IMG/VR virus record: IMGVR_UViG_3300045988_126140 | Span: 69,599 to 133,598 of that record | Origin: a virus | Strand: one strand, 5' to 3' | DNA length: 64,000 bases | Part shown: positions 35,788-60,265 of the stretch, piece after piece | Position numbering within the stretch: the first letter of the stretch is position 1 | Layout of the letters: each line of letters opens with the position of its first letter | Made by a program: the position numbers and the translations under genes | Notes under the pieces: generated by a model | What the model saw: the letters and a program-made list of their open reading frames with translations, nothing else | The model's database searches: none | Told to the model about the DNA's origin: nothing

Positions 35788-35817
35788 TTGACAAATTAAA
35801 CTAGAACGTGATATTAT
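35788..35817 (+). promoter_or_regulatory. sigma-A-type promoter
   Basis: TTGACA-18-TATTAT with TG extension. First of two tandem promoters opening the rightward arm. Confidence 0.6.
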
Positions 35818-35869
35818 ATAAACATAAACAACAACAAAAAAATAATTAATAAAAAATTAAAAAAAGTTG

Positions 35870-35898
35870 TTGACAAAATAGACGACAAGTGATAACAT
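35870..35898 (+). promoter_or_regulatory. sigma-A-type promoter
   Basis: TTGACA-17-TAACAT with TG extension, preceded by the 15-mer at 35839. Confidence 0.55.
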
Positions 35899-35982
35899 TA
35901 AAGTATAAGTATTAGACAAGGGAGAACGCCCAACCGTTCATAAAGTAACAATAAAAATAATTAATAAATAGGAGTGGTAAAT

Positions 35983-36342
35983 ATGAAAACAAGAAATCCA
36001 AAGAACTTAGTTAAAAGATATGGAAATCTTTGCGAATTAGAAAACACTGTATCAGATTGTTATTTAGGAAATTCAAGTTTCTATATGTTATCTGACGGTA
36101 GATACTTGAATGCCGAATCTGATGGTAGTTACAGAGCAGTCGACCATAGAATAATTTTTGGAGCTACAAAAATAAGTGCATACGATAATGACGCTTTTGG
36201 AAAATTACAAAGAAATTACCAACTTATTAGAATAGTTCCAGAGTGTGAAACTATAATGTTAGATAAAAAGCAGAAGATAACATTAGAACAACAAAGAGAA
36301 CTTGACAACCTTGGTTTTGACATAGAATATTATTGGGAATAA
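35983..36342 (+). CDS. hypothetical protein
   Basis: ATG 35983 lies 8 nt after AGGAG; the ORF-track GTG at 35974 is unlikely. The stop sits in a hairpin followed by AGCTC. Confidence 0.7.
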   Translation: MKTRNPKNLVKRYGNLCELENTVSDCYLGNSSFYMLSDGRYLNAESDGSYRAVDHRIIFGATKISAYDNDAFGKLQRNYQLIRIVPECETIMLDKKQKITLEQQRELDNLGFDIEYYWE

Positions 36343-36402
36343 TAATCTATTCCCTAAAGCTCAAGTTTTAAAAATAATTAATAAATAAAGGGGATGTTTT
36401 AA

Positions 36403-36846
36403 ATGCTAAAAGGTGAAATAAGAAAAGGAACAATAAGAAATACAGAAGGACAAGAAAAGAAATATATTAAACAGTTCAAAGGTAACGACCTAGAAAAGTG
36501 TATCATAGCAATAAATAATATGATGCATCAACGTATATACACATCAAGTCACTTAAGAAAAAAATCAACAGTATCATATAATATGAGAACAATTTGCGAA
36601 ATGTTGAAATATGGAGAATTTGACGTCATAGAATACAATTACACTAGAGGACAAGGAAGAATATTAGTGGAAAGTTGGAGTACATTTCCAGTAGAAATTG
36701 ATGATAAAATGACACAATGTACAATGAAGGTTGTCGTTGAACCAAAAACACAAAAAATTATAACAGTATGGTATAATAGCGTTGACGACACTCATGTAAG
36801 TTTAAATATGAAAAGATATAACAAGGACTTAGAAATTGTGTTCTAG
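36403..36846 (+). CDS. hypothetical protein
   Basis: 147 aa. 15-mer, then SD AAAGGGGA, then ATG. The stop is embedded in a 7-bp hairpin followed by AGCTC. Confidence 0.7.
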   Translation: MLKGEIRKGTIRNTEGQEKKYIKQFKGNDLEKCIIAINNMMHQRIYTSSHLRKKSTVSYNMRTICEMLKYGEFDVIEYNYTRGQGRILVESWSTFPVEIDDKMTQCTMKVVVEPKTQKIITVWYNSVDDTHVSLNMKRYNKDLEIVF

Positions 36847-36899
36847 TCCTTCCAGCTCAATACTATCATTTATGATAATGAAAACAATTAATAAAATTG

Positions 36900-36928
36900 T
36901 TGACAAATATTAAATGATAGTATATAAT
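36900..36928 (+). promoter_or_regulatory. sigma-A-type promoter
   Basis: TTGACA-17-TATAAT. Shares the core AAATGATAGTATATAATAT with promoters at 37397, 37861 and 39135. Confidence 0.7.
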
Positions 36929-36963
36929 ATCGATATAAAATAAATTGATAGGAGTGATGAGTT

Positions 36964-37110
36964 ATGAAGAAAGTATATTATAGCTTATATTTAGTAACAG
37001 AAGAAAGCGAAGAATTTTTAGCAAAAGTAAAGTCAAAAGGTCTTGCAATAAGAACTAAAATGTTATATAACAAAATATATGAAGGCAAAGGAAAAATAAT
37101 TATTAAATAG
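36964..37110 (+). CDS. hypothetical small protein (48 aa)
   Basis: Not in the ORF track. Has SD GGAGTG, its own promoter, and a stop inside a hairpin followed by AGCTC. Confidence 0.55.
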   Translation: MKKVYYSLYLVTEESEEFLAKVKSKGLAIRTKMLYNKIYEGKGKIIIK

Positions 37111-37182
37111 AGGATTTTAAGCCCTCTAGCTCAAGCTATCGAATGATAGCAAATTATATTAATAAAAAGGAGATATAAGATT

Positions 37183-37347
37183 ATGAAAAATAAAATGTTA
37201 TTTGTATTAGTGTTAGTATTAGGAATTGTTATATTTAAAAATCAAATATCCATAGCATTGATGTATGCAGTTGACTGTATAGGTTATGCATTCAACATTA
37301 ATGTGGTTGATATTATTGATTTGCTTAATACAATATACTATTTATAG
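37183..37347 (+). CDS. hypothetical small membrane protein (54 aa)
   Basis: Not in the ORF track. SD AAGGAG and a hydrophobic N-terminus. Confidence 0.5.
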   Translation: MKNKMLFVLVLVLGIVIFKNQISIALMYAVDCIGYAFNINVVDIIDLLNTIYYL

Positions 37348-37396
37348 TATTAAGCAATGATGGCAAAAATAATTAATAAATTTTTTAAAATAATTA

Positions 37397-37425
37397 TTGA
37401 CAACATCTAAATGATAGTATATAAT
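37397..37425 (+). promoter_or_regulatory. sigma-A-type promoter
   Basis: TTGACA-17-TATAAT. Confidence 0.7.
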
Positions 37426-37458
37426 ATTAAGTATAAGTAAATAAAGGAGTTGGTTTAA

Positions 37459-37806
37459 ATGACTAAAAAAGAAAAAAATATATTATTAGAAGAATATGGA
37501 TATCAATATCAAATGGAACAACTAATGGATAAGGATATTAGATTTTATAAAAATCTATTAGACAAATTAGGACTTCATAATGACAGAATAAATATAGAAA
37601 ACGATGTTTATTATATGGAAAATGAATTGAGTACTGTAAAATCCCATGCCTATGAAAGCCTTAATGATATAATTGAAAAATACAATGATGGTAAAAGAGT
37701 TAACGTTGAAGTCATGGAAATTTATTTAGAAGAAATAAAATATCAAGCTACTAATGATGATAAAAAATATATAGAAAGCAGTAAAAAAATTATATTAGGA
37801 GAATAA
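37459..37806 (+). CDS. hypothetical protein
   Basis: 115 aa helical ORF. SD, promoter and a stop in the GGAGAA..TTCTCC hairpin followed by AGCTC. Confidence 0.7.
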   Translation: MTKKEKNILLEEYGYQYQMEQLMDKDIRFYKNLLDKLGLHNDRINIENDVYYMENELSTVKSHAYESLNDIIEKYNDGKRVNVEVMEIYLEEIKYQATNDDKKYIESSKKIILGE

Positions 37807-37860
37807 TTTTCTCCTAAGCTCAAGCTATCTAAATTATAGTGAATAATATTAATAAAATTG

Positions 37861-37889
37861 TTGACTTGTTGTAAATGATAGTATATAAT
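37861..37889 (+). promoter_or_regulatory. sigma-A-type promoter
   Basis: TTGACT-17-TATAAT. Confidence 0.7.
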
Positions 37890-37924
37890 ATTAAATATAG
37901 AATAAATAAAGGGGAGTCGATAAT

Positions 37925-38422
37925 ATGAAATATTTTGAAAGTTGTAAGAGTAAAGAAGACGCAAAAAAATTATATAAAAAATTAGCTTTCCAATATCATC
38001 CCGATAAAGGCGGGGATGTTGAAATAATGAAAGCCATCAATAATGAATTTGATGACTTTATGAAGAACTTTAGAGAAGAAAAAAAAGATAGTAAAAAAGA
38101 ATATGAATTTACGGCAACTACATATAGAAACCTTATAGAACAATTAATAAAATTTGACGATATAACCATTGATGTAGTAGGCTGTTTTATATGGATAACT
38201 GGCAACACTTATCCAATAAAAGAAGAATTAAAACAATTAGGATTTAGATTTAGTAAAAATAAAAAATCATGGTATATTGCGCCAGAAGAATATATGAAAA
38301 ATAGAGTCAATTATAAGAAAAAATACAGTATGAATGAAATAAAAAATAAATATGGATGTACTTCTATAAAATCAAAAGGAGGATACAAGAAGGAAAAAGA
38401 TAATATAATAATGATAGGATAA
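37925..38422 (+). CDS. J-domain (DnaJ-like) protein, paralog 1
   Basis: KKLAFQYHPDKGGD carries the HPD motif. C-terminal LKQLGFRFSKNKKSWY block is shared with 42715..43569. Confidence 0.75.
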   Translation: MKYFESCKSKEDAKKLYKKLAFQYHPDKGGDVEIMKAINNEFDDFMKNFREEKKDSKKEYEFTATTYRNLIEQLIKFDDITIDVVGCFIWITGNTYPIKEELKQLGFRFSKNKKSWYIAPEEYMKNRVNYKKKYSMNEIKNKYGCTSIKSKGGYKKEKDNIIMIG

Positions 38423-38497
38423 ATAATTAATAATACTGCTTATAAGAACATAAGCAGTATAGCTCAAAATGATTATATAAATTATTAATAAAAACTA

Positions 38498-38527
38498 TTG
38501 ACAAAAGATAGTAAAATATGATATTAT
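38498..38527 (+). promoter_or_regulatory. sigma-A-type promoter
   Basis: TTGACA-18-TATTAT with TG extension. Confidence 0.6.
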
Positions 38528-38568
38528 ATAATCATGATAAAAATAATTAATAAATAGGAGTGGTAAAT

Positions 38569-39078
38569 ATGAATAAAAAAACATTATGGACTATATTAGG
38601 TATAACAAGTAATGCTATATTTCTAATAGGATTATTATTAATAATAGTATCATTTAAATATGATACTCATAAAGAATATGCATATACAGAAATGACTAGC
38701 ATAAACATACAAAAAGATGACAAAATAATAGCTAATGAACGTCCTCTTGATGATAGTCAAGAGCATGACAATAGAGTTAATAAAGATAATAAAGATTATG
38801 CTACTAATAACACTAGTGATTATGTTATAAAAACAACTACAAAAAAATCTACATACAATAATAATAGCAAAAACAATAGTAATGATAATAAAAACTATAG
38901 TAACACTAATACTAATAATACTAATAATACTAATAATACTAATAATACTAATAACAATAATAACTATACAGTTGAATATACAAACACCAGTTATTGTGGA
39001 TTTTGTGGTAAACAATTAAATAACAACGATGGTATTTGTGAAACTTGCAAAGATATAAGAAGTAAATTAGGAGAATAA
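38569..39078 (+). CDS. membrane-anchored Asn/Thr-rich protein with C-terminal zinc ribbon
   Basis: ATG 38569 after AGGAG. N-terminal TM helix, an (NNT)n tract and CGFCGK..CETC. Confidence 0.65.
   Translation: MNKKTLWTILGITSNAIFLIGLLLIIVSFKYDTHKEYAYTEMTSINIQKDDKIIANERPLDDSQEHDNRVNKDNKDYATNNTSDYVIKTTTKKSTYNNNSKNNSNDNKNYSNTNTNNTNNTNNTNNTNNNNNYTVEYTNTSYCGFCGKQLNNNDGICETCKDIRSKLGE
38914..38949 (+). repeat. 9-bp tandem repeat (AATAATACT) x4 inside CDS
   Basis: Four perfect units encoding NNT repeats. Confidence 0.85.
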
Positions 39079-39134
39079 TTTTCTCCTAAGCTCAATACTA
39101 TCATTTTGATATTGAAAAATAATTAATAAAACTA

Positions 39135-39163
39135 TTGACAACTTATGAATGATAGTATATAAT
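39135..39163 (+). promoter_or_regulatory. sigma-A-type promoter
   Basis: TTGACA-17-TATAAT. Confidence 0.7.
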
Positions 39164-39202
39164 ATTAAATATAAGTAAATTAATAAAAAGGAGAATGATA
39201 TT

Positions 39203-39517
39203 ATGAATAAAAAAGAATTAAGAACAATAGTAAAAGGTTTAGAAGGATATAAAATAGTTTTAACAAAAGAAGAATATAGAAAAGAAGGAAGAAAAAACTT
39301 CCCTAAAAATCCTTTAGAAATAACTGTTGAAGAAATAACAAGAGAAGAATATGAAAAAATATTCTCTAGTGTAAACTTCTTTATTGAAACATTTGGAGGG
39401 ACTGAAAGAATTTATAAAAGTTATACTTTAGCAGGTTATATACCTACTAAATTAGTAAGTACAAGTCCTAATAAAGAAATTAAAATTGTAAGAAGAATAT
39501 CTATTGAAAGATATTAA
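39203..39517 (+). CDS. hypothetical protein
   Basis: 104 aa. SD AAAGGAG. Stop TAA abuts the 15-mer. Confidence 0.7.
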   Translation: MNKKELRTIVKGLEGYKIVLTKEEYRKEGRKNFPKNPLEITVEEITREEYEKIFSSVNFFIETFGGTERIYKSYTLAGYIPTKLVSTSPNKEIKIVRRISIERY

Positions 39518-39574
39518 AAATAATTAATAAAGTTATTTATAATGATGACAAAATCATATATTATATAAATATAA

Positions 39575-39610
39575 AAAGGTTTACTGGTTCATCCTTTAAA
39601 AACCAGTCGT
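39575..39610 (+). ncRNA. covarying stem-loop with conserved 11-nt loop (copy 1)
   Basis: AAAGGTTT ACTGGTT cATCCTTTAAA AACCAGT (stem 39583..39589 / 39601..39607), followed by the 15-mer. Confidence 0.5.
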
Positions 39611-39681
39611 AAAAATAATTAATAAATTTTTTAAAAAGCTTTTGACAATGATAATAAAATATATTAATTGGAGGTTTTAAA

Positions 39682-39918
39682 ATGAACAACAATTTAATAA
39701 GATTAAGAAGTTTAATAGGGAGCGAATTAGATTATGATGATATAATTTGTGCAATGATAGATAAAGACGAAGAAGTAATAATCGATAACGTAAATCGTAG
39801 TAGCAACTTTGAAGAATATGGACTTTGCAATTTGTATCTAGTATATTACAACGACCCAATAAGTAGGACATATGGCATATGGGTTGATGTTGATAATATA
39901 ATACGTGTAATATCATAA
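39682..39918 (+). CDS. hypothetical protein
   Basis: 78 aa acidic ORF with SD GGAGG. A mirror ORF on the minus strand was rejected. Confidence 0.6.
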   Translation: MNNNLIRLRSLIGSELDYDDIICAMIDKDEEVIIDNVNRSSNFEEYGLCNLYLVYYNDPISRTYGIWVDVDNIIRVIS

Positions 39919-39989
39919 GGGCGTTAAGCCCTGGTTCTTAGTCATCAAAATGATGACAGAATATATTAATATTTTGGAGGTAATAATAT

Positions 39990-40220
39990 ATGCGTATAGA
40001 AGGTTATATATTGGACTGTGATAATAATAACTTAGCTAATAGCGTATTAGAATATTTAAAAAGAAAAACAAATAATTTAACTTATAAATATGAAGAGGAT
40101 ATTTACAGTTTATTTGTAAAAGGTGATATAGTATCAAATGATACAGAAATATATATTAACAATTTTATAGATTTTTTAGAAAATAATAATATGTGTTTTA
40201 TGGGTATGTTTGGGGAGTAA
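39990..40220 (+). CDS. hypothetical protein
   Basis: 76 aa ORF with SD GGAGG. Confidence 0.6.
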   Translation: MRIEGYILDCDNNNLANSVLEYLKRKTNNLTYKYEEDIYSLFVKGDIVSNDTEIYINNFIDFLENNNMCFMGMFGE

Positions 40221-40343
40221 TTCCTCAAGTTCTAGATTGTCTAAAATGATACTAAAAATAATTAATAATACTGCCTATATTTATAGGTGATATTGCTCAA
40301 AACTATCAAATGATAGTAAATAATATTAAAGGGGATGGAATAT

Positions 40344-41168
40344 ATGAACGAATTACAAATAAATAATAAATTAGTTGCTACTATACCAAGTTACGAAATT
40401 GCTAAAATGATGGATAGAAGACATAGCGATGTATTAAGAATGTTGGAAGGGAGTGAAAAACCTAAAGTTATCGGAATAATACCAGTTATAGAGGAGAACG
40501 TAGAACTACACTTATCCGATTATTTTATTAAATCTACATTCATAACAAGTCAAAATAAAAAAGTAACTTGTTATGAATGTACGCGAATGGGTTGTGATAT
40601 ATTAGCGAATAAAATGACAGGTGAAAAGGGAATATTATTTACTGCGAAATATGTTAAACGTTTTAGAGAGATGACAGAATATATTGATAATCAAATACAA
40701 CAATTGTCACCAGAAGACCAAGCTGTATTAAATATAATAAATGCAAATGATAAACTTGATAAAGCATTAGCCATAAAGGATTACAAAGATATCATAGAAA
40801 AGCCTTTATTGCAAGAAATAGATAAAATTAAACCATTAGCTCAAAAATTTGAAGCATTTTTAAAAGATGATGGATTAATTGATATAAATACATTTGCTAA
40901 AACATTAGGGATAAAAAATCTTGGAAGAAATAATATGTATAAATATCTTAGAGATAATCACTACATAGATAAAAATAATTATGCTATGCAGAGATATATT
41001 AATCAAAAATTATTTATTCTTAAACCAAGGGGGTATAAAGAAAATTATTATGGTGAGCGTATGCTAATATTTAAAACTTTTATAACTAAAAAGGGATTGG
41101 CTTATCTATTAGGAAAATTAGTCGAAGACGGATATATAACTTTTACAGATGATAATAAAAATAATTAA
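40344..41168 (+). CDS. antirepressor (Rha N-terminal domain plus KilAC/ANT C-terminal domain)
   Basis: LVATIPSYEIAKMMDRRHSDVLRMLE is Rha-like. C-terminal INTFAKTLGIKNLGRNNMYKYLRDNHYI is KilAC-like. ATG 40344 is better spaced from the SD than 40335. The stop lies inside the 15-mer. Confidence 0.7.
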   Translation: MNELQINNKLVATIPSYEIAKMMDRRHSDVLRMLEGSEKPKVIGIIPVIEENVELHLSDYFIKSTFITSQNKKVTCYECTRMGCDILANKMTGEKGILFTAKYVKRFREMTEYIDNQIQQLSPEDQAVLNIINANDKLDKALAIKDYKDIIEKPLLQEIDKIKPLAQKFEAFLKDDGLIDINTFAKTLGIKNLGRNNMYKYLRDNHYIDKNNYAMQRYINQKLFILKPRGYKENYYGERMLIFKTFITKKGLAYLLGKLVEDGYITFTDDNKNN

Positions 41169-41179
41169 TAAATATTATT

Positions 41180-41206
41180 GACTGGAGTTTTATCCAGTCT
41201 TTTTTA
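41180..41206 (+). terminator. intrinsic terminator
   Basis: GACTGG..CCAGTC, then TTTTTTATT. Confidence 0.75.
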
Positions 41207-41679
41207 TTGTCTATAAAATGATAATGATTTTCATTAACATTAAATATTAACTCCAGAAGTTATTTTTATAAAAGCTCAATAAAATCAACCTCTTAAACGC
41301 CCTTCTAAGGCGTTTTAAAATGATTAAGGTATAAATACCTTGTAGGCTATCGAATTCCTTTATAATGGATTATATAGGATATTTTATATTTTTATCTATA
41401 ATTGATAATACTTTTCATTTATATATTTATTCTCATTTAAAAATGATACTAAAATATATTAATTTATGAATTGATAATAAATATCAAATAAAATTATTTG
41501 TTATTGAGAATAATAATCATAACTATAAAAATTAATTTATATATAAAATAATATATTTTTAAAAAAATTTATATTTATTATTGATTTATAAAATTGAATA
41601 TGATATTATATAATCATAGTAGTAAATAAAAAGTTTTAAAAGATTATAAAAATAATTAATAAAATTAATAAAAAAGCTC

Positions 41680-41708
41680 TTGACAACGATAGTTAAATCA
41701 TATATAAT
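41680..41708 (+). promoter_or_regulatory. sigma-A-type promoter
   Basis: AGCTCTTGACA-17-TATAAT. Confidence 0.7.
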
Positions 41709-41740
41709 AATATTAGATAATTAAATAAGGAGTTGATATT

Positions 41741-42253
41741 ATGTTAAGTTTACAAAAAGCAAATAAAATATTGGAATTAGTTAAATCAGAAGGTATAAAG
41801 CTAGATAATATAAAATTAATAAAAGATGATAAATTTTCATATAGTACAAATGGTGTGATAACAATTCAAAATTGTAATTTTAACATAAATTCTAAATGGT
41901 ATGAATTTATGATTAAATACTTAGAAAAAGAATATAATTTAGACTCTAATGTTTATATGTTTTATGACTTTTTAGAAACATTTTCATTTTTACATGAGGT
42001 AGGGCACGCAACACAAGGATTAAAGAATAATGAAAAATATGATGATGAATACTTTTTATATAAAAATACAATATATAAAAGTTATGAAGAAGCTTACAAA
42101 ACTTATAGAAATTTGACACTAGAAAAACAAGCTGATAAATTTGCGGTATCATTCATTAAAAATCATAAACTTGAAATCTGGGCAATAATGAATGATATAA
42201 GTGTAAAAGAGGCTGAAGAAGAGTCTCAATTTTGGGAAACAAATTTATATTAA
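41741..42253 (+). CDS. putative zinc metallopeptidase (HExxH)
   Basis: FLHEVGHATQG contains HEVGH. 170 aa. Family not resolved. Confidence 0.45.
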   Translation: MLSLQKANKILELVKSEGIKLDNIKLIKDDKFSYSTNGVITIQNCNFNINSKWYEFMIKYLEKEYNLDSNVYMFYDFLETFSFLHEVGHATQGLKNNEKYDDEYFLYKNTIYKSYEEAYKTYRNLTLEKQADKFAVSFIKNHKLEIWAIMNDISVKEAEEESQFWETNLY

Positions 42254-42278
42254 TCCTAATAGCTCGAGCTATTAGGAT
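42253..42278. repeat. perfect 26-bp palindrome ATCCTAATAGCTC|GAGCTATTAGGAT
   Basis: 13-bp arms with no loop, centred on CTCGAG. It overlaps the last base (42253) of the stop codon of 41741..42253 and contains AGCTC. Confidence 0.85.
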
Positions 42279-42313
42279 AATTATAAAAACAATTAATAAA
42301 TTTAAAAAAGCTC

Positions 42314-42342
42314 TTGACAAAATAAAATGAAGTGTGATATAA
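42314..42342 (+). promoter_or_regulatory. sigma-A-type promoter
   Basis: AGCTCTTGACA-17-TATAAT with TG extension. Confidence 0.7.
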
Positions 42343-42375
42343 TTAAAATATAAAATAAATAAAGGAGTTGATAAT

Positions 42376-42651
42376 ATGAAAACAAATAGAGATAGAATAT
42401 TAGAAAAATTAAAGAAGGAAGGGTTTATAATAGGTTGTTATGACAGTAATATAGATAAATTAAATTATAACAACATTAAAAAAGTACTAGACGATATTCC
42501 TTTTGGAAGTACTGATATACAAGTATCCCTAAATAGAAAAAAATACATTGTCGAAGTTTCTGATGTAGACAATGAGTATGATTTTAAAATGACAGAAAAA
42601 AACACTTATTTAGACAGATATGGAGATGATGAATATTATGAAAAATGGTAA
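42376..42651 (+). CDS. hypothetical protein
   Basis: 91 aa. SD. Stop in the hairpin AAGGGA..TCCCTT followed by AGCTC. Confidence 0.7.
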   Translation: MKTNRDRILEKLKKEGFIIGCYDSNIDKLNYNNIKKVLDDIPFGSTDIQVSLNRKKYIVEVSDVDNEYDFKMTEKNTYLDRYGDDEYYEKW

Positions 42652-42714
42652 GGGAATTAATCCCTTCCAGCTCTTAAAAATAATTAATAAGATAATTGAA
42701 AGGGGACAAATGAT

Positions 42715-53312: not shown

Positions 53313-53373
53313 TTAGTATAAGAAAGGAGTTGATGCAAATTGAGTGTAGAATAAAAATAATTAATAAAATCAG

Positions 53374-53402
53374 TTGACAAATTGTAGTGAATATCATATA
53401 CT
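53374..53402 (+). promoter_or_regulatory. sigma-A-type promoter
   Basis: TTGACA-17-TATACT. Confidence 0.65.
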
Positions 53403-53463
53403 TAATATTATAAATAATCAATAAAATATTAATAAAAATAATAAATAAAGGGGATGGAATATT

Positions 53464-54240
53464 ATGGGAAATAAAATAGATAGAACAGGAGAAATAAATT
53501 GTAATACGTTTGGAAGTGAAATGATAATTACGGAATATAGAAGTGCAAAAGACATTGATGTTTATTTTTCAGAATATAACTGGACTTTTAAAAATGTTCG
53601 ATATAGTATTTTTAAAAATGGTAATATGAAATGTCCGTATGAAAGAAGACATTATAAAATTGGTTATTTAGGTGAAGGTGAGTATAAAATGAGTGAAAAT
53701 CGTAAACATACCAAAGTTTATAATACTTGGCATCATATGTTAGAAAGATGTTATGATAAAAAATTTCAAGAGAAACACCCCACTTACAAAGATTGTAAAA
53801 TATCTGAAGAATGGCATAACTTTCAGAATTTTGGCAATTGGTATAATGAAAATTATTATGAGGTAGAAGGCGAGATTATGTGTTTAGATAAAGACATTCT
53901 TGTTAAGCATAACAAGATATATTCACCAGATACTTGTATATTTGTACCTCAAATAATTAATACTTTATTTGTTAAAAGAGATAATGATAGAGGTGAATCA
54001 TGTATAGGTACAAGTCTTAAAGATGGAAAATATCAAGTAAGTTGTAATTTAATTAATCCTAAAACTGGAAAATCAAAAAGCGAATATTTAGGAATTTATG
54101 ATACAGAACTAGAAGCATTTGAGGTTTATAAGTATTATAAAGAAAAGAATATAAAACAAGTAGCTGATTATTATAAAGAACAAATACCATATAAACTTTA
54201 TAACGCTTTATACAAGTATAAAGTTGAAATAAATGATTAA
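53464..54240 (+). CDS. HNH_3-like/AP2-like homing-endonuclease-family protein, paralog 3 of 6
   Basis: Same block structure as the other paralogs. Confidence 0.55.
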   Translation: MGNKIDRTGEINCNTFGSEMIITEYRSAKDIDVYFSEYNWTFKNVRYSIFKNGNMKCPYERRHYKIGYLGEGEYKMSENRKHTKVYNTWHHMLERCYDKKFQEKHPTYKDCKISEEWHNFQNFGNWYNENYYEVEGEIMCLDKDILVKHNKIYSPDTCIFVPQIINTLFVKRDNDRGESCIGTSLKDGKYQVSCNLINPKTGKSKSEYLGIYDTELEAFEVYKYYKEKNIKQVADYYKEQIPYKLYNALYKYKVEIND

Positions 54241-54257
54241 AACAATTAGTAATATTA

Positions 54258-54285
54258 AGACTAGATAATTCTAGTCTATTTTTTG
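54258..54285 (+). terminator. intrinsic terminator
   Basis: AGACTAG..CTAGTCT, then ATTTTTTG. Confidence 0.75.
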
Positions 54286-54347
54286 TTCATTTTTTAGTTG
54301 ATAAATATATCAAGATGTGCTACTTTTATATTAAAGGGGTGATAGAT

Positions 54348-54416
54348 ATGAAATATGTATTAACATTTATGTTTATAAATTTAGTTGGTATAACAATGGG
54401 CTTTATATTATTTTAA
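54348..54416 (+). CDS. possible 22-aa hydrophobic peptide
   Basis: SD AAAGGGGTG 6 nt before the ATG. MKYVLTFMFINLVGITMGFILF. Too short to be confident. Confidence 0.3.
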   Translation: MKYVLTFMFINLVGITMGFILF

Positions 54417-54444
54417 TTGATTTTAAAAATAATTAATAAAACAG

Positions 54445-54473
54445 TTGATAAATTATAATAAACATCATATAAT
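54445..54473 (+). promoter_or_regulatory. sigma-A-type promoter
   Basis: TTGATA-17-TATAAT. Confidence 0.6.
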
Positions 54474-54501
54474 ATATATAAAATAAAAACAAGGGGGATA
54501 A

Positions 54502-54813
54502 ATGATAAATATGATAATAGAACCTATGAACTGTGCAGGGGGAAATGTAATCGAAAAAAATAAAGAAAGAATTAGAAATATAAAACTAGAAATACAAAGA
54601 GGTGGTATTTCGATAAATAATCTATATAGTAAATATAACTACGAAGGATTTAAAACTTTTTTATGTAACAATGTATTATTTGAAGATATACCAGATTCAG
54701 AAGTTATTAGGATATATAATTGTATAAACAAGGAGCAGTTTAAAGAATGGTATATGAGTAGAGGGACTAGAGGTGCGTATGATTTAATAGCATATTATAA
54801 AATTTATAAATAA
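54502..54813 (+). CDS. hypothetical protein
   Basis: 103 aa. SD AAGGGGGA. Start is 54502 or 54511. The stop lies in a 15-mer variant. Confidence 0.65.
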   Translation: MINMIIEPMNCAGGNVIEKNKERIRNIKLEIQRGGISINNLYSKYNYEGFKTFLCNNVLFEDIPDSEVIRIYNCINKEQFKEWYMSRGTRGAYDLIAYYKIYK

Positions 54814-54825
54814 TTAATAAAGATG

Positions 54826-54855
54826 TTGACAAAATAGTAAAGGATATGTTATACT
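54826..54855 (+). promoter_or_regulatory. sigma-A-type promoter
   Basis: TTGACA-18-TATACT with TG extension. Confidence 0.65.
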
Positions 54856-54892
54856 TAGTACATAAATAAAATAATAAAGGAGCTGATATAAT

Positions 54893-55234
54893 ATGAATAC
54901 AGATTTATATAACTTAAATAAAAATTATATATACAAAGGAGAACTTGTAACACTTGTGGATGAGTTTACAGGCGTAATAGAAGAAAATGGTAAAGAGAAA
55001 ATAATTTTACCATCACAAACTGAATGTTTAGGTTACAAAGTAGAAGAGTTTGAAGTAGGAAAACAATATGTATTTGATAAGAGATTAATATCAAAACATC
55101 TAGGAGAATTGAGTGGATGGCAAATAGAAATAGATGGTAAACCAGTCAAAGTTGAAAATAAAAAAAATGGTTATTGTTTCAATGATAAAGGTGAATTGTA
55201 TATGGTATTTGCGAGTTGGTGTAAAGAAGTATAA
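54893..55234 (+). CDS. hypothetical protein
   Basis: 113 aa. SD AAGGAG. The C-terminal ..ASWCKEV resembles the C-terminus of 56452..57063. Confidence 0.65.
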   Translation: MNTDLYNLNKNYIYKGELVTLVDEFTGVIEENGKEKIILPSQTECLGYKVEEFEVGKQYVFDKRLISKHLGELSGWQIEIDGKPVKVENKKNGYCFNDKGELYMVFASWCKEV

Positions 55235-55272
55235 TATAATATACAAAAGATAAAATAAGGGGGAAATTGAAT

Positions 55273-55470
55273 ATGAAATTAATAGAAGCATTTCAAATAG
55301 TTACTGATTCTATAGAAGACGATATAAAATTTTGTAAGGAAATTAACAATGACTTTGACGATGAGTTTCTACATGAAGTTATTGATTTCTTAGAAACAAG
55401 ATGCGATGTATTGAATCGTGCTGAACAAAGGGAGAGAAAATGGAATCAACGTAGAAATTTAGAAAAATAA
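55273..55470 (+). CDS. hypothetical protein
   Basis: ATG 55273 after AAGGGGGA. 65 aa. The stop lies in the 15-mer. Confidence 0.6.
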   Translation: MKLIEAFQIVTDSIEDDIKFCKEINNDFDDEFLHEVIDFLETRCDVLNRAEQRERKWNQRRNLEK

Positions 55471-55492
55471 TTAATAAAAAAGGGGGATTAAA

Positions 55493-56269
55493 ATGGGGAA
55501 AGTAATAGATAGAACAGGAGAAAAGAATTATAATACATTTGGAAGTAAAATGATAATAGCGAATTATAATGGATGTATGGATATTGATATATATTTCCCA
55601 AAGTATGATTGGACTTTTAAAAATGCAAAATATCAACATTTTAAAAATGGAGATATAAAATGTCCTTATGATAGAAGTATATATGGTGTTGGTTACATTG
55701 GTGAGGGTAATTATAAGGTAAGTGAAAATCGCAAACTAACTAAAGTTTATAGCACTTGGCAAAGCATGTTACAAAGATGTTATTCTGAAAAATTTCAAGA
55801 GAAACATCCTACATATATTACTTGTGAAGCATCTGAAGAATGGCATAATTTTCAAAACTTTGCTAAATGGTACAATGAGAATTACTATGAAATTGAAGGC
55901 GAAAGAATGGATTTAGATAAAGATATTTTAGTAAAGCACAATAAAATATATTCTCCAGAGACTTGTATATTTGTACCACAAACTATTAACAAATTATTTG
56001 TTAGATGCGATAGAAGTAGAGGTGAATCAGTTATAGGTACAACTCCTGTAAATGGTAAATATCAAGTAAAATGTTATTTACTTAATCCTAAAACAGGAAA
56101 ATCTAAAAATGAATATTTAGGCTATTATGATAGTCAAGAAAAAGCATTTGAGGTATACAAATACTATAAAGAAAAGAATATAAAAGAAGTCGCTGATTAT
56201 TTTAAAGATGAAATTCCAGTTAAACTTTATAACGCTTTATATTCATATGAAGTTGAAATTACAGATTAA
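55493..56269 (+). CDS. HNH_3-like/AP2-like homing-endonuclease-family protein, paralog 4 of 6
   Basis: Same blocks. 111 nt (55658..55768) are identical to 47501..47611 in paralog 1. Confidence 0.55.
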   Translation: MGKVIDRTGEKNYNTFGSKMIIANYNGCMDIDIYFPKYDWTFKNAKYQHFKNGDIKCPYDRSIYGVGYIGEGNYKVSENRKLTKVYSTWQSMLQRCYSEKFQEKHPTYITCEASEEWHNFQNFAKWYNENYYEIEGERMDLDKDILVKHNKIYSPETCIFVPQTINKLFVRCDRSRGESVIGTTPVNGKYQVKCYLLNPKTGKSKNEYLGYYDSQEKAFEVYKYYKEKNIKEVADYFKDEIPVKLYNALYSYEVEITD

Positions 56270-56297
56270 TAATAATGTATAAAGGAGGTTATATAAT

Positions 56298-56435
56298 ATG
56301 AAACATTTATTTAAATTTATATTATTATTGTTAATTTATGGAGTTTTATTTGAAACATTCGGAGTAAAAAGTTTTGATGGTAAGTGGTTAATTATGACTA
56401 TTTGTGTTACATTGACATATATGTTAGGTAATTAA
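56298..56435 (+). CDS. small membrane protein (45 aa)
   Basis: Not in the ORF track. SD AAAGGAGG and two hydrophobic segments. Confidence 0.45.
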   Translation: MKHLFKFILLLLIYGVLFETFGVKSFDGKWLIMTICVTLTYMLGN

Positions 56436-56451
56436 TAAAGGAGGAGAAAAT

Positions 56452-57063
56452 ATGTTAGATAAATTTAATTTAGAATCATTATATATATTTAATAAAAACA
56501 AATACAAAGTCTACAATGGTACAATTCCTAATTGGGTTGAAATATGTCACGGATTAATAGTTGAAGTGGAAAACGAATATATAGGTAATATTAAAGTAGA
56601 AGGCGAAGAGTACGTTGTATTTCCTTATAGTTGTAATAAAATAGAAGTAGATGTTAAATCCGCAGAAACAGAAAATGTATATGGAAATGATATTATAAAT
56701 GACGTTATAGGAACAATACAAACAAAATCAAGTTTTCAAGGTGGTAAACCTAAAGAATTTGAAGGAAAAATATTTTTTGGTATAGATAAAAATGATATTT
56801 GGACAGACGCAGGATTTTCATTATTAGATAATTTAGAAGATAAATCTATAAATAATCACTCAAAAGAACTTACATTTAATGTAAATAAGAAATATTATTT
56901 TGATGTGAATTTAGTTGATAAAAAAGACATAAAAGATTGGATGTATAAATGTAGTGGAGTTAATGTCGATGTAGCTGATGTAAATAAAGGATTTGTTTTA
57001 GATTCGTGGGAAGATGAATATCATGTTGTAGTTAGAAAATGGTGTAAGTTGAAAAATAATTAA
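56452..57063 (+). CDS. hypothetical protein
   Basis: 203 aa. SD AAGGAGG. The stop lies inside the 15-mer (..LKNN*). Confidence 0.7.
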   Translation: MLDKFNLESLYIFNKNKYKVYNGTIPNWVEICHGLIVEVENEYIGNIKVEGEEYVVFPYSCNKIEVDVKSAETENVYGNDIINDVIGTIQTKSSFQGGKPKEFEGKIFFGIDKNDIWTDAGFSLLDNLEDKSINNHSKELTFNVNKKYYFDVNLVDKKDIKDWMYKCSGVNVDVADVNKGFVLDSWEDEYHVVVRKWCKLKNN

Positions 57064-57121
57064 TAAACTTATTGACGAATAATATTGAAAACTAAATAAT
57101 TAATAAAAAGGAGGAGAAAAT

Positions 57122-57904
57122 ATGAGTGAAAAAACAATAGGTAGAACAGGTGAAACAGCTTATAATAAATTTGGAAGCGAGATGATAATTATTGATTATA
57201 AAGGATGTATGGACGTAGATGTTTATTTTCCAGAATATAATTGGACCTTTAAAAATGCACATTATAGTAGTTTTAAAAAAGGAAATATTAAATGCCCTTA
57301 TGAGAGGAGATATTATGAAGTTGGATATTTAGGAGAAGGAAAATATAAAGTAAGTGAAAATGGTAAACATACCAAAGTTTACCAAACATGGCACGATATG
57401 TTGAGAAGATGCTATGACGAAAAAAGTCTTAAAAGAAATCCTACTTATATAGGCTGTAAGGTAGATAAAGAGTTTCATAATTTTCAAGAATATGGAGAAT
57501 GGAGCGAAGATAACTATTATGAAATAAAAGAAGAAAAGATGTGTCTTGACAAAGACATATTAGTTAAACATAATAAAATCTACTCACCAGAAACCTGTAT
57601 ATTTGTACCGCAAAGAATAAATACTTTATTTACAAAAAGAGATAGTAAAAGAGGAAATAATCCAATAGGTGTTTCAGATTATATAAATGGTAAGTATGTA
57701 GCACAATGTCATATAATTAATCCCGAAACAGGAAAATCAAAATATGAATGTTTAGGTGTTTATGAAACTCAACTTAAAGCTTTTGAGGTGTATAAAGAAT
57801 TTAAAGAGAAAAATATCAGACAAGTAGCTGACTATTACTTTGGTTTAATCCCTAACAAACTATACAATACTTTATATAATTATGAAGTTGAGATAACAGA
57901 TTAA
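57122..57904 (+). CDS. HNH_3-like/AP2-like homing-endonuclease-family protein, paralog 5 of 6
   Basis: Same blocks. 65 nt (57239..57303) are identical to 63936..64000 in paralog 6. Confidence 0.55.
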   Translation: MSEKTIGRTGETAYNKFGSEMIIIDYKGCMDVDVYFPEYNWTFKNAHYSSFKKGNIKCPYERRYYEVGYLGEGKYKVSENGKHTKVYQTWHDMLRRCYDEKSLKRNPTYIGCKVDKEFHNFQEYGEWSEDNYYEIKEEKMCLDKDILVKHNKIYSPETCIFVPQRINTLFTKRDSKRGNNPIGVSDYINGKYVAQCHIINPETGKSKYECLGVYETQLKAFEVYKEFKEKNIRQVADYYFGLIPNKLYNTLYNYEVEITD

Positions 57905-57933
57905 AAATAATTAATAAAATTTATTAGAAGGTA

Positions 57934-57962
57934 TTGACTTTCTAGTAAATACTTTATATAAT
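57934..57962 (+). promoter_or_regulatory. sigma-A-type promoter
   Basis: TTGACT-17-TATAAT, upstream of the first sigma gene. Confidence 0.7.
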
Positions 57963-57995
57963 ATGTAGTATAAGATAAACAAAGGGGGAGAAAAT

Positions 57996-58586
57996 ATGAA
58001 AGAAAAAATTTCAAATGAACAAGGAAGATTGATGATAAAAATAACAAAGGGGATATGGAATAAACGATTTAAAACATTCTCTCTATTTAAAGACGATATG
58101 CAATCATATGCTTATATGCAAATGTGTAGTGCTATAAAAAGATATGATGAAAGCAAAAATGTTTCATTAAATACTTATCTCAATGCTATTGCATGGAAGA
58201 GCATGACAAAATATGTGAGAGACTTTGTATATAAAAATAAAGGTAAAGTTATTTCTGCTGAAGGAATATATACAATGAATGATACATCACTGGATTGTAG
58301 AAAGGAATATAATAAAATAATTAGTCATTTTCTTAAGGAAGATATCAACTATGAAAATATTGAAAAACAAGAGTTTATAGATAAATTTAATAATATAGTT
58401 GAAGAGAGAAATAAACATACGAGCCGAAAAATAAATTTAGATGAACTACATTTCATAATTAATAAACTATATGAAGGTTACAATAAATGCGAAATCAGCA
58501 AAATGTTAGGAGTAAGTAGTACAAATGTTAATAAAAAAGTAAATAGAATAAGAGATATAATTACAGAAATAAAAAATAATGAATAA
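57996..58586 (+). CDS. sigma-70-family sigma factor (small, ECF/group-5 size), paralog 1
   Basis: Region-2-like ..YDESKNVSLNTYLNAIAWKSMTKYVRD.. and region-4 HTH ..CEISKMLGVSSTNVNKKVNRIRDII.. 196 aa. Confidence 0.65.
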   Translation: MKEKISNEQGRLMIKITKGIWNKRFKTFSLFKDDMQSYAYMQMCSAIKRYDESKNVSLNTYLNAIAWKSMTKYVRDFVYKNKGKVISAEGIYTMNDTSLDCRKEYNKIISHFLKEDINYENIEKQEFIDKFNNIVEERNKHTSRKINLDELHFIINKLYEGYNKCEISKMLGVSSTNVNKKVNRIRDIITEIKNNE

Positions 58587-58591
58587 AGCAA

Positions 58592-58621
58592 TTGGCAAAG
58601 ATAGTTTGGTTATGTTGTACT
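58592..58621 (+). promoter_or_regulatory. weak sigma-A-type promoter
   Basis: TTGGCA-18-TGTACT. Confidence 0.35.
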
Positions 58622-58651
58622 TAATATATAAAATAAAGAGAGGTGATAAAT

Positions 58652-58858
58652 ATGAAAACATTAAAATTAACAGACCAAGAGCTAGAAACGTTAATATTGA
58701 TATTGAGTGAAGCTAAAGTATGTCTATCTGGTTGTATTGTTGAAGAATATCAAGACGAAGATTTTGATTGCGAGGATTGTCCATTTGAGCAAAGTAAATG
58801 GGATATTTGGGAAAAACTAATGGAGATTAACTGTGAAGACGACCCAGCTTATAAATAA
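58652..58858 (+). CDS. hypothetical Cys-containing acidic protein
   Basis: ATG 58652 after AGAGGTG. 68 aa. The stop abuts the 15-mer. Confidence 0.6.
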   Translation: MKTLKLTDQELETLILILSEAKVCLSGCIVEEYQDEDFDCEDCPFEQSKWDIWEKLMEINCEDDPAYK

Positions 58859-58897
58859 AAATAATTAATAAACTAATGGATAATAGGGGGATAAGTT

Positions 58898-59470
58898 ATG
58901 AATAAAACAATGATAAGTGATACAGAATATATAAATTTATCTTTAGAATTAACAGGAAAAATTTACAACAAAAATTATAATGGGTTTTCTTCTATTAAAG
59001 AGGATATGATTCAACATTCGTTACTGGAACTTTGGAAATCTAGAAATAAATTTGATGAGTCTAAAGGGGATATTAAAAAATTTATTTGTGCAATTATATA
59101 CAATTCATACAATGTATATTTAAGAAACACTTATTATAAAGATAAAGATATGCTTACATCTATGGATGTTAATATATCTGACGATGGAAAAGAAGAGACT
59201 ACTCTATTAGATACCATAGGAAAAATAGATTTGAAATATAAAGATATTGAATATATGGAATTATTAAAAGAATTTGATGATGTAATTGCAATGCGTAATT
59301 TGGGGAAATACAATAAGATTAATGCAGAAGAATTACATATAATCATGAATATGTTGATGGATGGATACAAACAAAATGAAATATCTAAAACATTAAATGT
59401 AAGCAGTGTGACAATTAATAAAAAAATTAATTTAATCAAGGACGTAATAAAAGAAATTAAAAATAACTAA
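58898..59470 (+). CDS. sigma-70-family sigma factor (small), paralog 2
   Basis: Collinear with 57996..58586 (..FDESKGDIKKFICAIIYNSYNVYLRN.. / ..NEISKTLNVSSVTINKKINLIKDVI..). 190 aa. Confidence 0.65.
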   Translation: MNKTMISDTEYINLSLELTGKIYNKNYNGFSSIKEDMIQHSLLELWKSRNKFDESKGDIKKFICAIIYNSYNVYLRNTYYKDKDMLTSMDVNISDDGKEETTLLDTIGKIDLKYKDIEYMELLKEFDDVIAMRNLGKYNKINAEELHIIMNMLMDGYKQNEISKTLNVSSVTINKKINLIKDVIKEIKNN

Positions 59471-59486
59471 TAAAGGAGAGATAAAT

Positions 59487-60203
59487 ATGAGAAAAATAAG
59501 TCAAGAAGAATTAAATAAAATATTAAAGGAACATGAATTATGGTTAAAAGGAGAAGGAAGAAAATGTGCTGATTTAAGCAATGCTAATTTGAGAGGCATT
59601 AATTTAAGTAATGTTGATTTAACGGGTGCTAATTTGAATAATGCTGATTTAAATAATGCCGACTTAAGCAATACTGACTTTAGCAATGTTAATTTAAGAT
59701 GTGCTAATTTAGAAGACGCTAATTTGAGAGGTGCTACTTTAGTACATACTGATTTAAGATGTACTACTTTAATACGAGCTGATTTAACATCTGCTAATTT
59801 AAGCAATGCTAATTTAAGTAGTGCTAATTTATCCAATGCTGATTTAAAAGATATAAAAACAAATATTCATACTATTGGTTATAATTTAGCTTGTCCAGAA
59901 AAAGGTAGTTTTATAGGATATAAGAAAGCTGGTGGATGTCTAATCGAATTATTGATATTAGAAGATGCTAAAAGAAGTAGTGCAACTACTGCAAAATGTA
60001 GATGTGATAAAGCTAAAGTATTAGATATAGAAAATATTGAAACAGAAGAGAAAATAACTAAGATAAATAGTAACCATGATAGTAATTTTATATATAGAGT
60101 TGGAGAAATAGTACATGTGGATAATTTTGATAATAATAGATGGAATGAATGTAGTACTGGAATACATTTCTTTATAAATAAAGAAAATGCAATAAATTAT
60201 TAA
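59487..60203 (+). CDS. pentapeptide-repeat protein with distinct C-terminal domain
   Basis: About 20 consecutive A(D/N)LxX pentapeptides (CADLSNANLRGINLSNVDLTGANLNNADL..). C-terminal ~110 aa globular part ends ..NRWNECSTGIHFF.. Confidence 0.8.
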   Translation: MRKISQEELNKILKEHELWLKGEGRKCADLSNANLRGINLSNVDLTGANLNNADLNNADLSNTDFSNVNLRCANLEDANLRGATLVHTDLRCTTLIRADLTSANLSNANLSSANLSNADLKDIKTNIHTIGYNLACPEKGSFIGYKKAGGCLIELLILEDAKRSSATTAKCRCDKAKVLDIENIETEEKITKINSNHDSNFIYRVGEIVHVDNFDNNRWNECSTGIHFFINKENAINY

Positions 60204-60236
60204 TAAGACATTGAAGTAAAAATAATTAATAAAGTA

Positions 60237-60265
60237 TTGACTTTTATCCAAAAAAGTTATATAAT
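60237..60265 (+). promoter_or_regulatory. sigma-A-type promoter
   Basis: TTGACT-17-TATAAT. Confidence 0.7.

Follow-up and report, generated by a model that had tools for sequence, protein, structure and literature searches.

The subject of this analysis is a promoter-dense array of small genes in a 64-kb stretch of viral DNA (the window), the final 64 kb of a 133,562-bp human-gut metagenome scaffold that is a ~133-kb phage-plasmid, distantly SPbeta-like, of an uncultured gut Firmicute. The window DNA has a base composition of ~25% G+C. Genes lie on the minus strand up to ~33 kb and on the plus strand from 35983 on, and a 2-kb non-coding stretch carrying 22-bp iterons separates the two arms. 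The late (minus) arm encodes a portal, a terminase-like open reading frame (ORF), a sigma-like protein, tail-like proteins and an IS605 TnpB, and the early or regulatory arm (35788-63728, plus strand) holds 47 mostly small genes, 21-24 sigma-A promoters and 32 copies of a short conserved box. GC skew changes sign where the arms switch, in the ori region at ~34.3-35.7 kb. A second contig, L002, is identical (100%) to window positions 52540-64000, and no close cultured relative emerged from phage and plasmid collections by megablast of the region, whose single match was an HNH gene of Bacillus phage Sophrita (77% DNA identity).

Virion genes and plasmid replication and partition genes are found together on this one replicon. 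A Rep_3 initiator gene (30273-31229) lies beside the likely origin, where three tandem iterons, CTAGTTATCCACAAGTATTTTG, occupy 34323-34388 with an extra copy at 34534; each holds the DnaA box TTATCCACA. Dispersed CTAGTAATATCAACA repeats also occur in this likely plasmid origin region (34200-35050). A gene for an actin-like ParM homologue, followed by a small gene, lies close to the window end (a ParM-like/ParR-like pair), the element encodes Xer-like recombinases, and its portal protein is 30-33% identical to portals of ~130-kb plasmidial phages of C. difficile. An earlier note on this DNA had spoken of a phage-plasmid. Given the Rep_3 gene, the iterons with their DnaA boxes, the ParM homologue and the portal akin to those of the C. 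difficile phages, and with the recombinases and terminase also present, that identification is well founded as a reading of gene content, and the element is presumably maintained as a plasmid.

Promoters and transcription units of the early arm

We scanned both strands of the window for TTGACA-16..18-TATAAT with at least 11 of 12 matches and found 24 such near-consensus promoters, all on the plus strand, the first starting at 35788 and the last occupying 61610-61638; there are none on the minus strand and none in 1-35787. Dinucleotide shuffles of 35788-61700 yield 2.1 +/- 1.5 (maximum 9), an 11-fold difference, and perfect 12/12 sites number seven where shuffling predicts 0.05. Weak matches (at least 9/12) are not enriched (221 versus 182 and 80 versus 85), and the enrichment is confined to the near-consensus class. 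Twenty-one of the 24 promoters are intergenic, with those at 36317, 52640 and 57546 lying inside ORFs, and a TG extension is present in eight. For 17 of the 21 intergenic promoters the end of the -10 lies 25-41 nt from the ATG (mode 32-33), and the start codons have a strong Shine-Dalgarno sequence (SD).

The earlier note had counted at least 23 promoters between 35788 and 60265, and 23 of the 24 sites do fall in that interval. Its promoter array is therefore real, but its claim of one promoter per gene was overstated, because ~21-24 promoters serve 47 genes (the curated set, 35983-64000); ~17 of the first 24 genes have a promoter of their own and 5-7 of the last 23. Similarly, a 19-nt core said to be identical in four promoters, AAATGATAGTATATAATAT, is exact at 36912, 37409 and 37873, but the copy at 39147 differs in its first base.

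Upstream of the first gene, G1, stand a TG-extended TTGACA-18-TATTAT promoter with 11/12 matches (35788-35817) and a second, promoter-like site, TTGACA-17-TAACAT, with 10/12 matches and TG (35870-35898). Perfect promoters precede G3 (36900-36928), G5 (37397-37425), G8 (39135-39163), G12 (41680-41708, the first after the terminator at 41180), G13 (42314-42343, TG), G16 (44304-44333) and G23 (48778-48807, TG). Those with 11/12 matches precede the J-domain protein gene G6 (37861-37889), G7 (38498-38527, TG), G15 (43676-43705, TG), the Dam methyltransferase gene G17 (44665-44694, TG), G18 (45584-45612, TG), G20 (46689-46717), the Xer-like recombinase gene G24 (49426-49454), G28 (53374-53402), G30 (54445-54473), G31 (54826-54855, TG), the first phage sigma-factor gene (57934-57962), G41 (60237-60265) and the Bro-N gene G44 (61610-61638), where a box lies between the -10 and the SD. 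Two more promoter-like sites, each with 10/12 matches and TG, stand upstream of G19 (TTGACT-17-TATATT, 46242-46270) and of a gene for an MrpR/SroF-like protein (TTGTCA-17-TATACT, 52320-52348).

In 61 distinct orthologous copies from relatives, 5.5% of positions are substituted in the -35 hexamer and 9.6% in the -10, whereas the rates for the spacer and for third codon positions are 19.8% and 14.7% (Fisher p 1e-11 and 6e-6). Because they change less than either the spacer or third codon positions, the hexamers evidently evolve under purifying selection, and we infer that the promoters are active. At the G13 promoter the -35 and extended -10 are unchanged across eight genomes.

Only six canonical intrinsic terminators were found on the plus strand (41180-41199, 49355-49382, 52206-52224, 53239-53268, 54258-54277 and 63708-63728), and together they partition the arm, which by its sequence is a set of few long multi-promoter units rather than a row of insulated cassettes. 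The earlier note had described self-contained expression cassettes. This description does not hold, because there are only six terminators and the same gene may occur with or without a promoter in relatives, as the Dam gene does; the hairpins between genes also lack U-tracts.

A second conserved promoter-like motif, TCATAGGTAATTT(T)-N12/13-GTTAATA, lies ~12-20 nt before the SD in eight copies, all co-oriented with genes, at 50401, 53281 and 63768 on the plus strand and at 29970, 29846, 29557, 27025 and 21615 on the minus strand. Several copies precede HNH genes and late-arm genes, and the motif is possibly the target of a phage sigma factor. Three sigma-like proteins are encoded in the window: two phage sigma factors of the extracytoplasmic function (ECF)-like type on the plus strand (57996-58586 and 58898-59470, flanking the small G38), and a 391-aa protein annotated in PHROG as a sigma factor on the minus strand (25243-26418), the gene of which has a box copy ahead of it.

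The box, the repeated blocks and a candidate repressor

The most conserved element of the arm is the box, (TA)AAAATAATTAATAAA, the 15-mer of which has 38 exact copies in the window against 0.02 expected. Thirty-two are on the plus strand in the plus arm and six on the minus strand in the minus arm, always pointing with the genes. A count matrix of 56 copies with at most one mismatch gives a 17-bp core, TA plus the 15-mer, and ~40% of copies have a weaker left extension, aaWGATnnTA, which makes ATGATAGTA the left part of a ~25-bp site. Across 54 orthologous alignments that cover the sequence on both sides, substitutions amount to 1.0% in the box and to 11.6% and 13.5% in the flanking 15 nt, so that the box is more conserved than the -35 hexamer or coding DNA. 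The earlier note had recognised the 15-mer as a block, but had seen it as one among several.

Boxes stand at nearly every gene boundary of the arm, and their spacing is quantised. In 11 cases (class A) the box lies 3-6 nt upstream of the -35; copies of this class start at 39116, 44283, 44646, 45565, 46223, 48759, 53354, 54426, 57053 and 60219, each extending a further 14 nt. Class B, about 14-16 nt upstream of the -35 (15-16 nt in five cases), lies roughly one helical turn beyond class A; listed under it are 37366-37380 and the copies at 35839, 39612, 41649, 43610, 46659, 47255 and 57904. In class C (including 35954-35968 and those at 36371, 38540, 47299, 51358, 55464, 58858, 60461 and 61641) the box is 12-25 nt upstream of a start codon (12-19 nt in 10 cases) and abuts the SD, with no intervening promoter. 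The box often overlaps the upstream stop codon, as at 39517, 55464, 57904, 58858 and 60461, and over the 3' ends of four genes it supplies a KNN* C-terminus (41158-41172 in G11, 45565 in the Dam gene, 48759 in G22 and 57053 in G35). Other plus-strand copies lie in tandem with 47255 (47242), in frame inside G26 (52132) and 60 nt upstream of the -35 of the MrpR-like gene (52245). The late-arm copies, on the minus strand and co-oriented with genes, are at 29406-29420, 27794, 26440, 24048 (in frame inside a gene), 9448 and 2957.

All 15 relatives of the element carry the identical box, at ~1 per kb and on the plus strand only, and each of the eight loci scanned for promoters has 9-17 consensus promoters. 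This identity led us to reject immunity-like variation of the box among close relatives. Box and promoter array are both absent from unrelated 24-25% G+C phage loci and from C. difficile LIBA2945, in which no 12-14-mer exceeds seven copies and ~13 promoter matches occur in 82 kb; LIBA2945 thereby rules out the array as a general trait of ~130-kb clostridial phage-plasmids. A metagenome scan for the box plus TTGAC returned mostly single chance matches from unrelated environments, with ~13 of 120 loci coming from the lineage, and the same 120 loci gave no sign of host-chromosomal use of the box.

The intergenic DNA is built from further reused blocks, as the earlier note had described. At least 60 direct-repeat families of 24-87 nt occur in 35700-49600, and both the 15-mer and AGCTC lie far above expectation, the latter with 17 copies in 3.3 kb of intergenic sequence, where 0.44 are expected, and one in 11.4 kb of coding DNA. 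The usual order begins with a GC-rich hairpin holding the upstream stop codon and (Y)AGCTCAA, continues with a GATAGT-type hairpin or its half (ATGATAGTA) and AAAATAATTAATAAA, and ends with an optional TTTTTTAAAAAGCTC, the -35/-10 and AAATAAGGAGTTGATAAT-ATG. The hairpin-AGCTC block at the 3' end of genes is found on the plus strand at 36335-36364, 36823-36860, 37108-37134, 37795-37823, 38433-38467, 39067-39095, 42254-42279, 42646-42675, 44602-44630, 46182-46210 and 46618-46646. The 11 GC-rich hairpins upstream of the box have a dG of -6.6 to -15 kcal/mol, and none has a U-tract. G5 and G7, which encode unrelated proteins, share an identical 29-nt 3' block that includes the last three codons. 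AATGATAGTA stands immediately before the 15-mer at 43644, 46649 and 47289, and composite units without a -10, TTGACA-ATGATAGTA-box at 43639-43669 and TTGGCA-ATGATAGTA-box at 47283-47313, match those pointed out before.

Between the promoter-like site at 46242 and G19, a ~30-nt unit, ATATAATATAGTATGTTATATTTAATAT, is tandemly duplicated (46247-46310), which looks like a slippage or recombination scar.

Master repressors of the MrpR/YopR/SroF type, which have a recombinase fold without catalysis, control SPbeta-like prophages. The protein encoded by G27 (52376-53248, plus strand) is, by profile and fold, a member of this family and the candidate repressor of the array. No other protein of the arm is as well conserved (93-97% identity in most relatives), and the gene has its own promoter-like site and terminators on both sides. 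Since sequence similarity is remote, family membership rests on a domain record, a profile match and a fold ranking. PF22823 (MrpR_C_cat) is recorded for G27 and all 43 homologues in the collection's precomputed record; our local Pfam copy gave no match to G27 even at E 10. A profile of 24 homologues searched against the PDB matched phi3T SroF best (E 4.9e-6), the next being an Xer-like protein (E 0.044), and hhalign aligned G27 with SPbeta YopR over 184 columns (E 1.3e-4). In a fold search with an AlphaFold (AF2) model (pLDDT 89.8), the top seven matches were SroF (apo, DNA-bound and Sar-bound), YopR and MrpR (E 1e-8 to 1e-6, TM 0.52-0.61), and Cre, IntI and Xer ranked lower (E at least 1e-4, TM at most 0.41). 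The hhalign alignment places GIYQSG of G27 against TIVRSG of YopR, in the segment taken as the HxxR box. G24, the Xer-like tyrosine recombinase gene (49488-50390, plus strand), is conserved just upstream, and the order of an integrase-like gene followed by an mrpR-like gene recurs in SPbeta (yopP-yopQ-yopR, at L282:33691-37257), in the window and in four distant relatives (L278-L281).

About ten intergenic promoter regions contain the 15-bp SPBRE bound by MrpR, which represses PaimR and PyosX (PMC10516654). SroF binds as a monomer and reads 24 bp of an asymmetric AT-rich 26-bp box that recurs throughout the genome (bioRxiv 10.1101/2025.11.27.690993). The SPBRE that we extracted from SPbeta DNA, AAATACAAAWAATATGTATA, has seven copies in 50 kb, co-oriented with genes, and lies a few nt 5' of the -35 (aimR) or against the SD (yopV, yopM, yonX), positional classes that match those of the box. 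MrpR-like proteins 36-49% identical to G27 occur in arrays of small plus-strand genes that have a differing AT-rich box at the same positions: TATAAAATTAATAAA in L278 (13 sites at no more than one mismatch in 21 kb), (GTA)CAAAATAAATAAA in L280 (11 sites at no more than one mismatch) and ATAATAATTAATAA in L279 and L281. Box and protein co-vary in these sequences as expected of a protein-operator pair, and G27 would be the protein that binds the box.

Gene shuffling among relatives

We mapped the window by blastn and tblastn onto 15 related contigs of 86-140 kb. The earlier note had proposed cassette shuffling, a proposal that conserved gene order with evenly spread divergence would have contradicted; the comparison instead revealed permuted genes, uneven identity and intergenic breakpoints. 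Many genes are present in some relatives and absent in others, some being replaced by unrelated ORFs, and most ORFs of the arm are orphans without a Pfam or PHROG function. The order G13-G14-G15-G16-G17 of the window reads G13-G15-G16-G14-HNH-G17 in L127, L128 and L131; the Dam gene precedes G13 in L124, and G3 follows G6 in L125. Within a single relative, neighbouring genes span 44-100% amino-acid identity. Colinearity is greater from 49.5 to 64 kb, the arm's second half, where HNH genes occupy variable sites.

Homology breakpoints fall in intergenic DNA in 125 of 188 cases (66%, against 17.6% expected; p 1e-49), and 44 of the 63 intragenic ones are within 32 nt of a gene end. The box +/-3 nt accounts for 46 of the 125 intergenic breakpoints (17.5% expected; p 3e-7). 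At the junction 42690->43653 the shared sequence is the box itself, 15 nt (AAAAATAATTAATAA); box-only junctions share 15-16 nt, and elsewhere the shared sequence is either a hairpin-AGCTC block of 32-38 nt or an entire box-promoter-SD module of 63-107 nt. Four different contexts are seen upstream of the Dam gene among relatives, including the 15-mer with a promoter, the 15-mer with the SD only, and hairpin-AGCTCAA with the SD. A ~45-nt direct repeat of box and SD brackets the HNH gene at 47333, and L129 lacks this gene, the junction there measuring 69 nt.

An apparent translocation of the late-arm gene 27921-29120 into the array of L125, L152 and L154 was rejected, the inserted gene being instead a 78%-identical paralogue. 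It stands in place of an HNH gene, joined at the SD, and was not counted as a mini-circle-type move.

Six paralogous genes for HNH-family (AP2-like) endonucleases, 69-75% identical to one another in DNA, lie on the plus strand at 47333-48115, 50534-51346, 53464-54240, 55493-56269, 57122-57904 and 63822-64000. They occupy different positions in different relatives, and in the place of the copy at 63822, contig L001 has a shorter, 133-aa paralogous ORF. The 77% DNA match to phage Sophrita covers one segment of these genes.

Explanations for the array and what they would mean

We think it rather probable that the array has two layers, being a silencing regulon of the SPBRE type whose modules double as recombination seams. 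Host sigma-A RNA polymerase would start at ~21 intergenic promoters, each ~32 nt upstream of a small, mostly orphan ORF, and because terminators are few, the transcripts should run through several genes. During plasmid maintenance G27 would bind the box and silence the promoter-dense arm, perhaps acting as a roadblock at promoter-less copies. An antirepressor, or loss of the repressor, would free all promoters at once, and the arm's own sigma factors would then drive later genes; the fit of the phage sigma factors and the TCATAGGTAATTT motif to an early-to-late cascade is conjecture. The box, promoter and ribosome-binding-site modules are direct repeats of 15-100 nt, ~1 kb apart, and therefore supply portable homology. 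Recombination within or between related genomes, a pathway suggested by the sequence comparison, would insert, delete, replace and permute ORFs at gene boundaries, and a gene joined via the box would come already wired to the repressor. Because the box is probably the operator of an MrpR/SroF-type repressor encoded within the array, the array is probably a repressible regulon and not merely a substrate for shuffling.

The MrpR-SPBRE system of SPbeta and phi3T offers the closest parallels to such a regulon. It, too, has a tyrosine-recombinase-fold protein in the early arm, downstream of an integrase-like gene, and an asymmetric AT-rich intergenic box that is co-oriented with transcription and lies 5' of the -35 or abuts the SD; the SPbeta genome, at ~134 kb, likewise pairs a late arm with a divergent one made up of many small genes. 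Unlike SPbeta, our element is a plasmid-prophage of the Rep_3/ParM kind, the window showed no arbitrium genes, and consensus promoters are ~5-fold more numerous (24 versus ~4 per 50 kb). The stoperators of cluster A mycobacteriophages (L5 gp71) are also comparable in numbering more than 20 asymmetric sites at promoters and short intergenic gaps, in following the direction of transcription and in being read by a monomeric repressor. They differ in that the L5 repressor consists of a helix-turn-helix (HTH) plus a stoperator domain rather than a recombinase fold, that host clade and site sequence are unrelated, and that the box is here invariant among close relatives; no HTH-plus-stoperator-domain protein was found among the window proteins scanned.

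Several observations weigh against the silencing regulon with its recombination seams. The similarity of G27 to MrpR and SroF is remote (13-23% identity, with an hhalign probability of only 54%). The window has at least 38 boxes (~38 sites per 64 kb), far above the ~10 SPBRE sites of the SPbeta genome, and the box is unrelated to SPBRE in sequence except for being AT-rich and asymmetric. It marks almost every boundary, many of these being promoter-less junctions or stop codons, where a repressor would have to work as a roadblock, if it has a role there at all. The box is identical in relatives whose MrpR-like proteins share only 59% identity, so that co-variation is seen only at greater distance, and that co-variation could equally be explained by lineage drift of a linker. 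Frequent homogenisation by gene conversion alone could explain the 1% substitution rate. On the recombination side, RecA-type exchange would have little to work with in 15 nt of identity, and the lineage DNA examined yielded neither a phage recombinase nor an annealase; tblastn with Erf, RuvC and RecJ of LIBA2945 found none in the lineage's available DNA, the replication module lying outside the window.

The strongest competing explanation is that the modules are only of the kind known as PeSLs (promoter-early stem-loops, mobile regulatory cassettes of T4-type phages), the 15-mer being an AT-rich, UP-like stretch with a stop codon, without a dedicated reader and kept exact by gene conversion. 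Module-bounded shuffling has been described for PeSLs in T4-type phages (Arbiol 2010; Comeau 2014; PMC2839356; PMC4122927), where modules of up to ~100 bp combine a stop codon in an AT-rich stretch, a consensus sigma-70-type promoter, a stem-loop, an SD and a start codon, stand before orphan ORFs in a plastic region, and bound the indels, replacements and rearrangements between relatives. The order of stop codon, AT-rich stretch, -35, -10, SD and start in the window fits this description (PMC2839356), orphan ORFs predominate, as they do in T4 hyperplastic regions, the box has an excess of breakpoints, and it is at the UP-element position in 11 promoters, with class B roughly one helical turn further. 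Our element is a Firmicute phage-plasmid rather than a lytic myovirus of Gram-negative hosts, however, and its stem-loop lies upstream of the AT-rich part, contains the stop codon and lacks a U-tract. It also has an invariant 17-bp box with a likely cognate repressor. A generic UP element has no need of 15/15 identity, conversion tracts are not expected to end as sharply as the 10-fold step in conservation between the box and its adjoining flanks, about one-third of boxes abut an SD without a promoter and six lie in the late arm, and the arm encodes an MrpR/SroF-type protein, with a different box where that protein has diverged. We therefore regard modules without a reader as unlikely, if still worth serious consideration.

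It is improbable that the box acts at the RNA level, as an AU-rich translation enhancer or standby site in read-through mRNA, or as a cleavage site near 3' hairpins. Its strict strand specificity, the 10-13 copies that lie 12-25 nt upstream of start codons and the GC-rich hairpins without U-tracts ahead of many boxes would suit such a role, for which the Start-Associated Sequences (SAS, with the related ESAS) of cluster K mycobacteriophages set a precedent (PMC3203893): SAS are 13-bp oriented repeats of the non-structural half that stand beside start codons, with upstream stop codons sometimes inside the repeat. SAS, however, include the SD and lie 3-7 bp from the start codon, whereas our box lies upstream of the SD, which is not part of it, and two-thirds of its copies are not start-adjacent. 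The fixed phase of classes A and B to the -35 points to a constraint on DNA, and Rfam and tRNA scans of the window found nothing, so that the box matches no Rfam family.

Less credible again is an integron-like site-specific system, in which an Xer-like recombinase or G27 would act at the hairpin-AGCTC block or the box. The hairpins that overlap stop codons do recall attC sites, the arm has two genes of the tyrosine-recombinase fold, and sites resembling those of integrons have been reported from phages (PMC9892861), but G24 scores 37 bits against the integron-integrase model TIGR02249 (cut-off 265) and best matches Xer models, and G27 has GIYQSG at the presumed HxxR box and ranks by fold with non-catalytic repressors. 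In the 3.3 kb of intergenic DNA, GTTRRRY occurs four times (3.6 expected) and the attC core RYYYAAC once (2.4 expected), junctions are spread over hairpin-AGCTC, box and promoter-SD with no single crossover point, and the cassettes bring their own promoters. With no IntI-type integrase and core sites at chance level, we rejected this reading.

We give very little credence to the box as a polar motif of replication or segregation (KOPS-, SRS- or Chi-like), read by an FtsK-like ATPase or by host AddAB. Box orientation does switch at the ori region along with GC skew, and an FtsK/SpoIIIE-family gene is present (31881-32999), but the directions of genes and replication are confounded here, the box is limited to gene boundaries and phased to promoters and SDs, its density is 5-fold unequal between the arms, and known polar motifs are short and G-rich. 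An artefact of 25% G+C composition, compatible with the chance-level count of weak promoter matches, is refuted by the shuffle controls, which near-consensus promoters exceed 11-fold on one strand only, by the 38 copies of the 15-mer against 0.02 expected, and by other 24-26% G+C loci that have neither feature.

Several other genes of the window are of note. Two J-domain (DnaJ-like) proteins are encoded on the plus strand at 37925-38422 and 42715-43569, one also having an LPD29 domain, and the two genes share 76% identity over their first ~150 nt together with the SD ahead of them. G7 encodes a predicted membrane-anchored protein with a C-terminal CxxC...CxxC motif and contains an Asn/Thr-rich low-complexity run of TAATAC/TAATAA repeats (38877-38967, plus strand). 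In the late arm, an IS605-family TnpB gene (8168-9406, minus strand; OrfB_IS605 and Cas12f-like TNB domains) is inserted directly after the box copy at 9448 and a terminator-like hairpin. A terminase-large-subunit-like ORF (19204-20256, minus strand) adjoins an HNH/intron-type endonuclease gene (20578-21558, minus strand), and the terminase gene may have been split by this mobile endonuclease. Right after the second ECF-like sigma factor, a pentapeptide-repeat protein with a DUF5758 tail (59487-60203, plus strand) may be a DNA-mimic or anti-defence candidate.

A plasmid-prophage with ~20 consensus housekeeping promoters must silence them, and if the box is the operator through which it does so, this regulon of a recombinase-fold repressor would be several-fold larger than any described. 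The repressor family, characterised only in 2023-2025, would then reach from Bacillus prophages to phage-plasmids of gut Firmicutes. The breakpoint maps provide evidence, at nucleotide resolution, that repeated regulatory modules are sites of modular shuffling outside T4-like phages too. A further and more tentative idea, which we consider possible rather than probable, is that the operator has turned into a universal gene-boundary adaptor, the 17-bp box serving both as silencing site and as homology for cassette exchange. If so, each new gene would fall under prophage repression upon insertion, giving the phage-plasmid a plug-and-play system for accessory genes. The box may also be used as a marker in metagenomes for gene boundaries, early arms and relatives of the lineage, and host takeover or anti-defence are candidate roles for the orphan ORFs lying between boxes.

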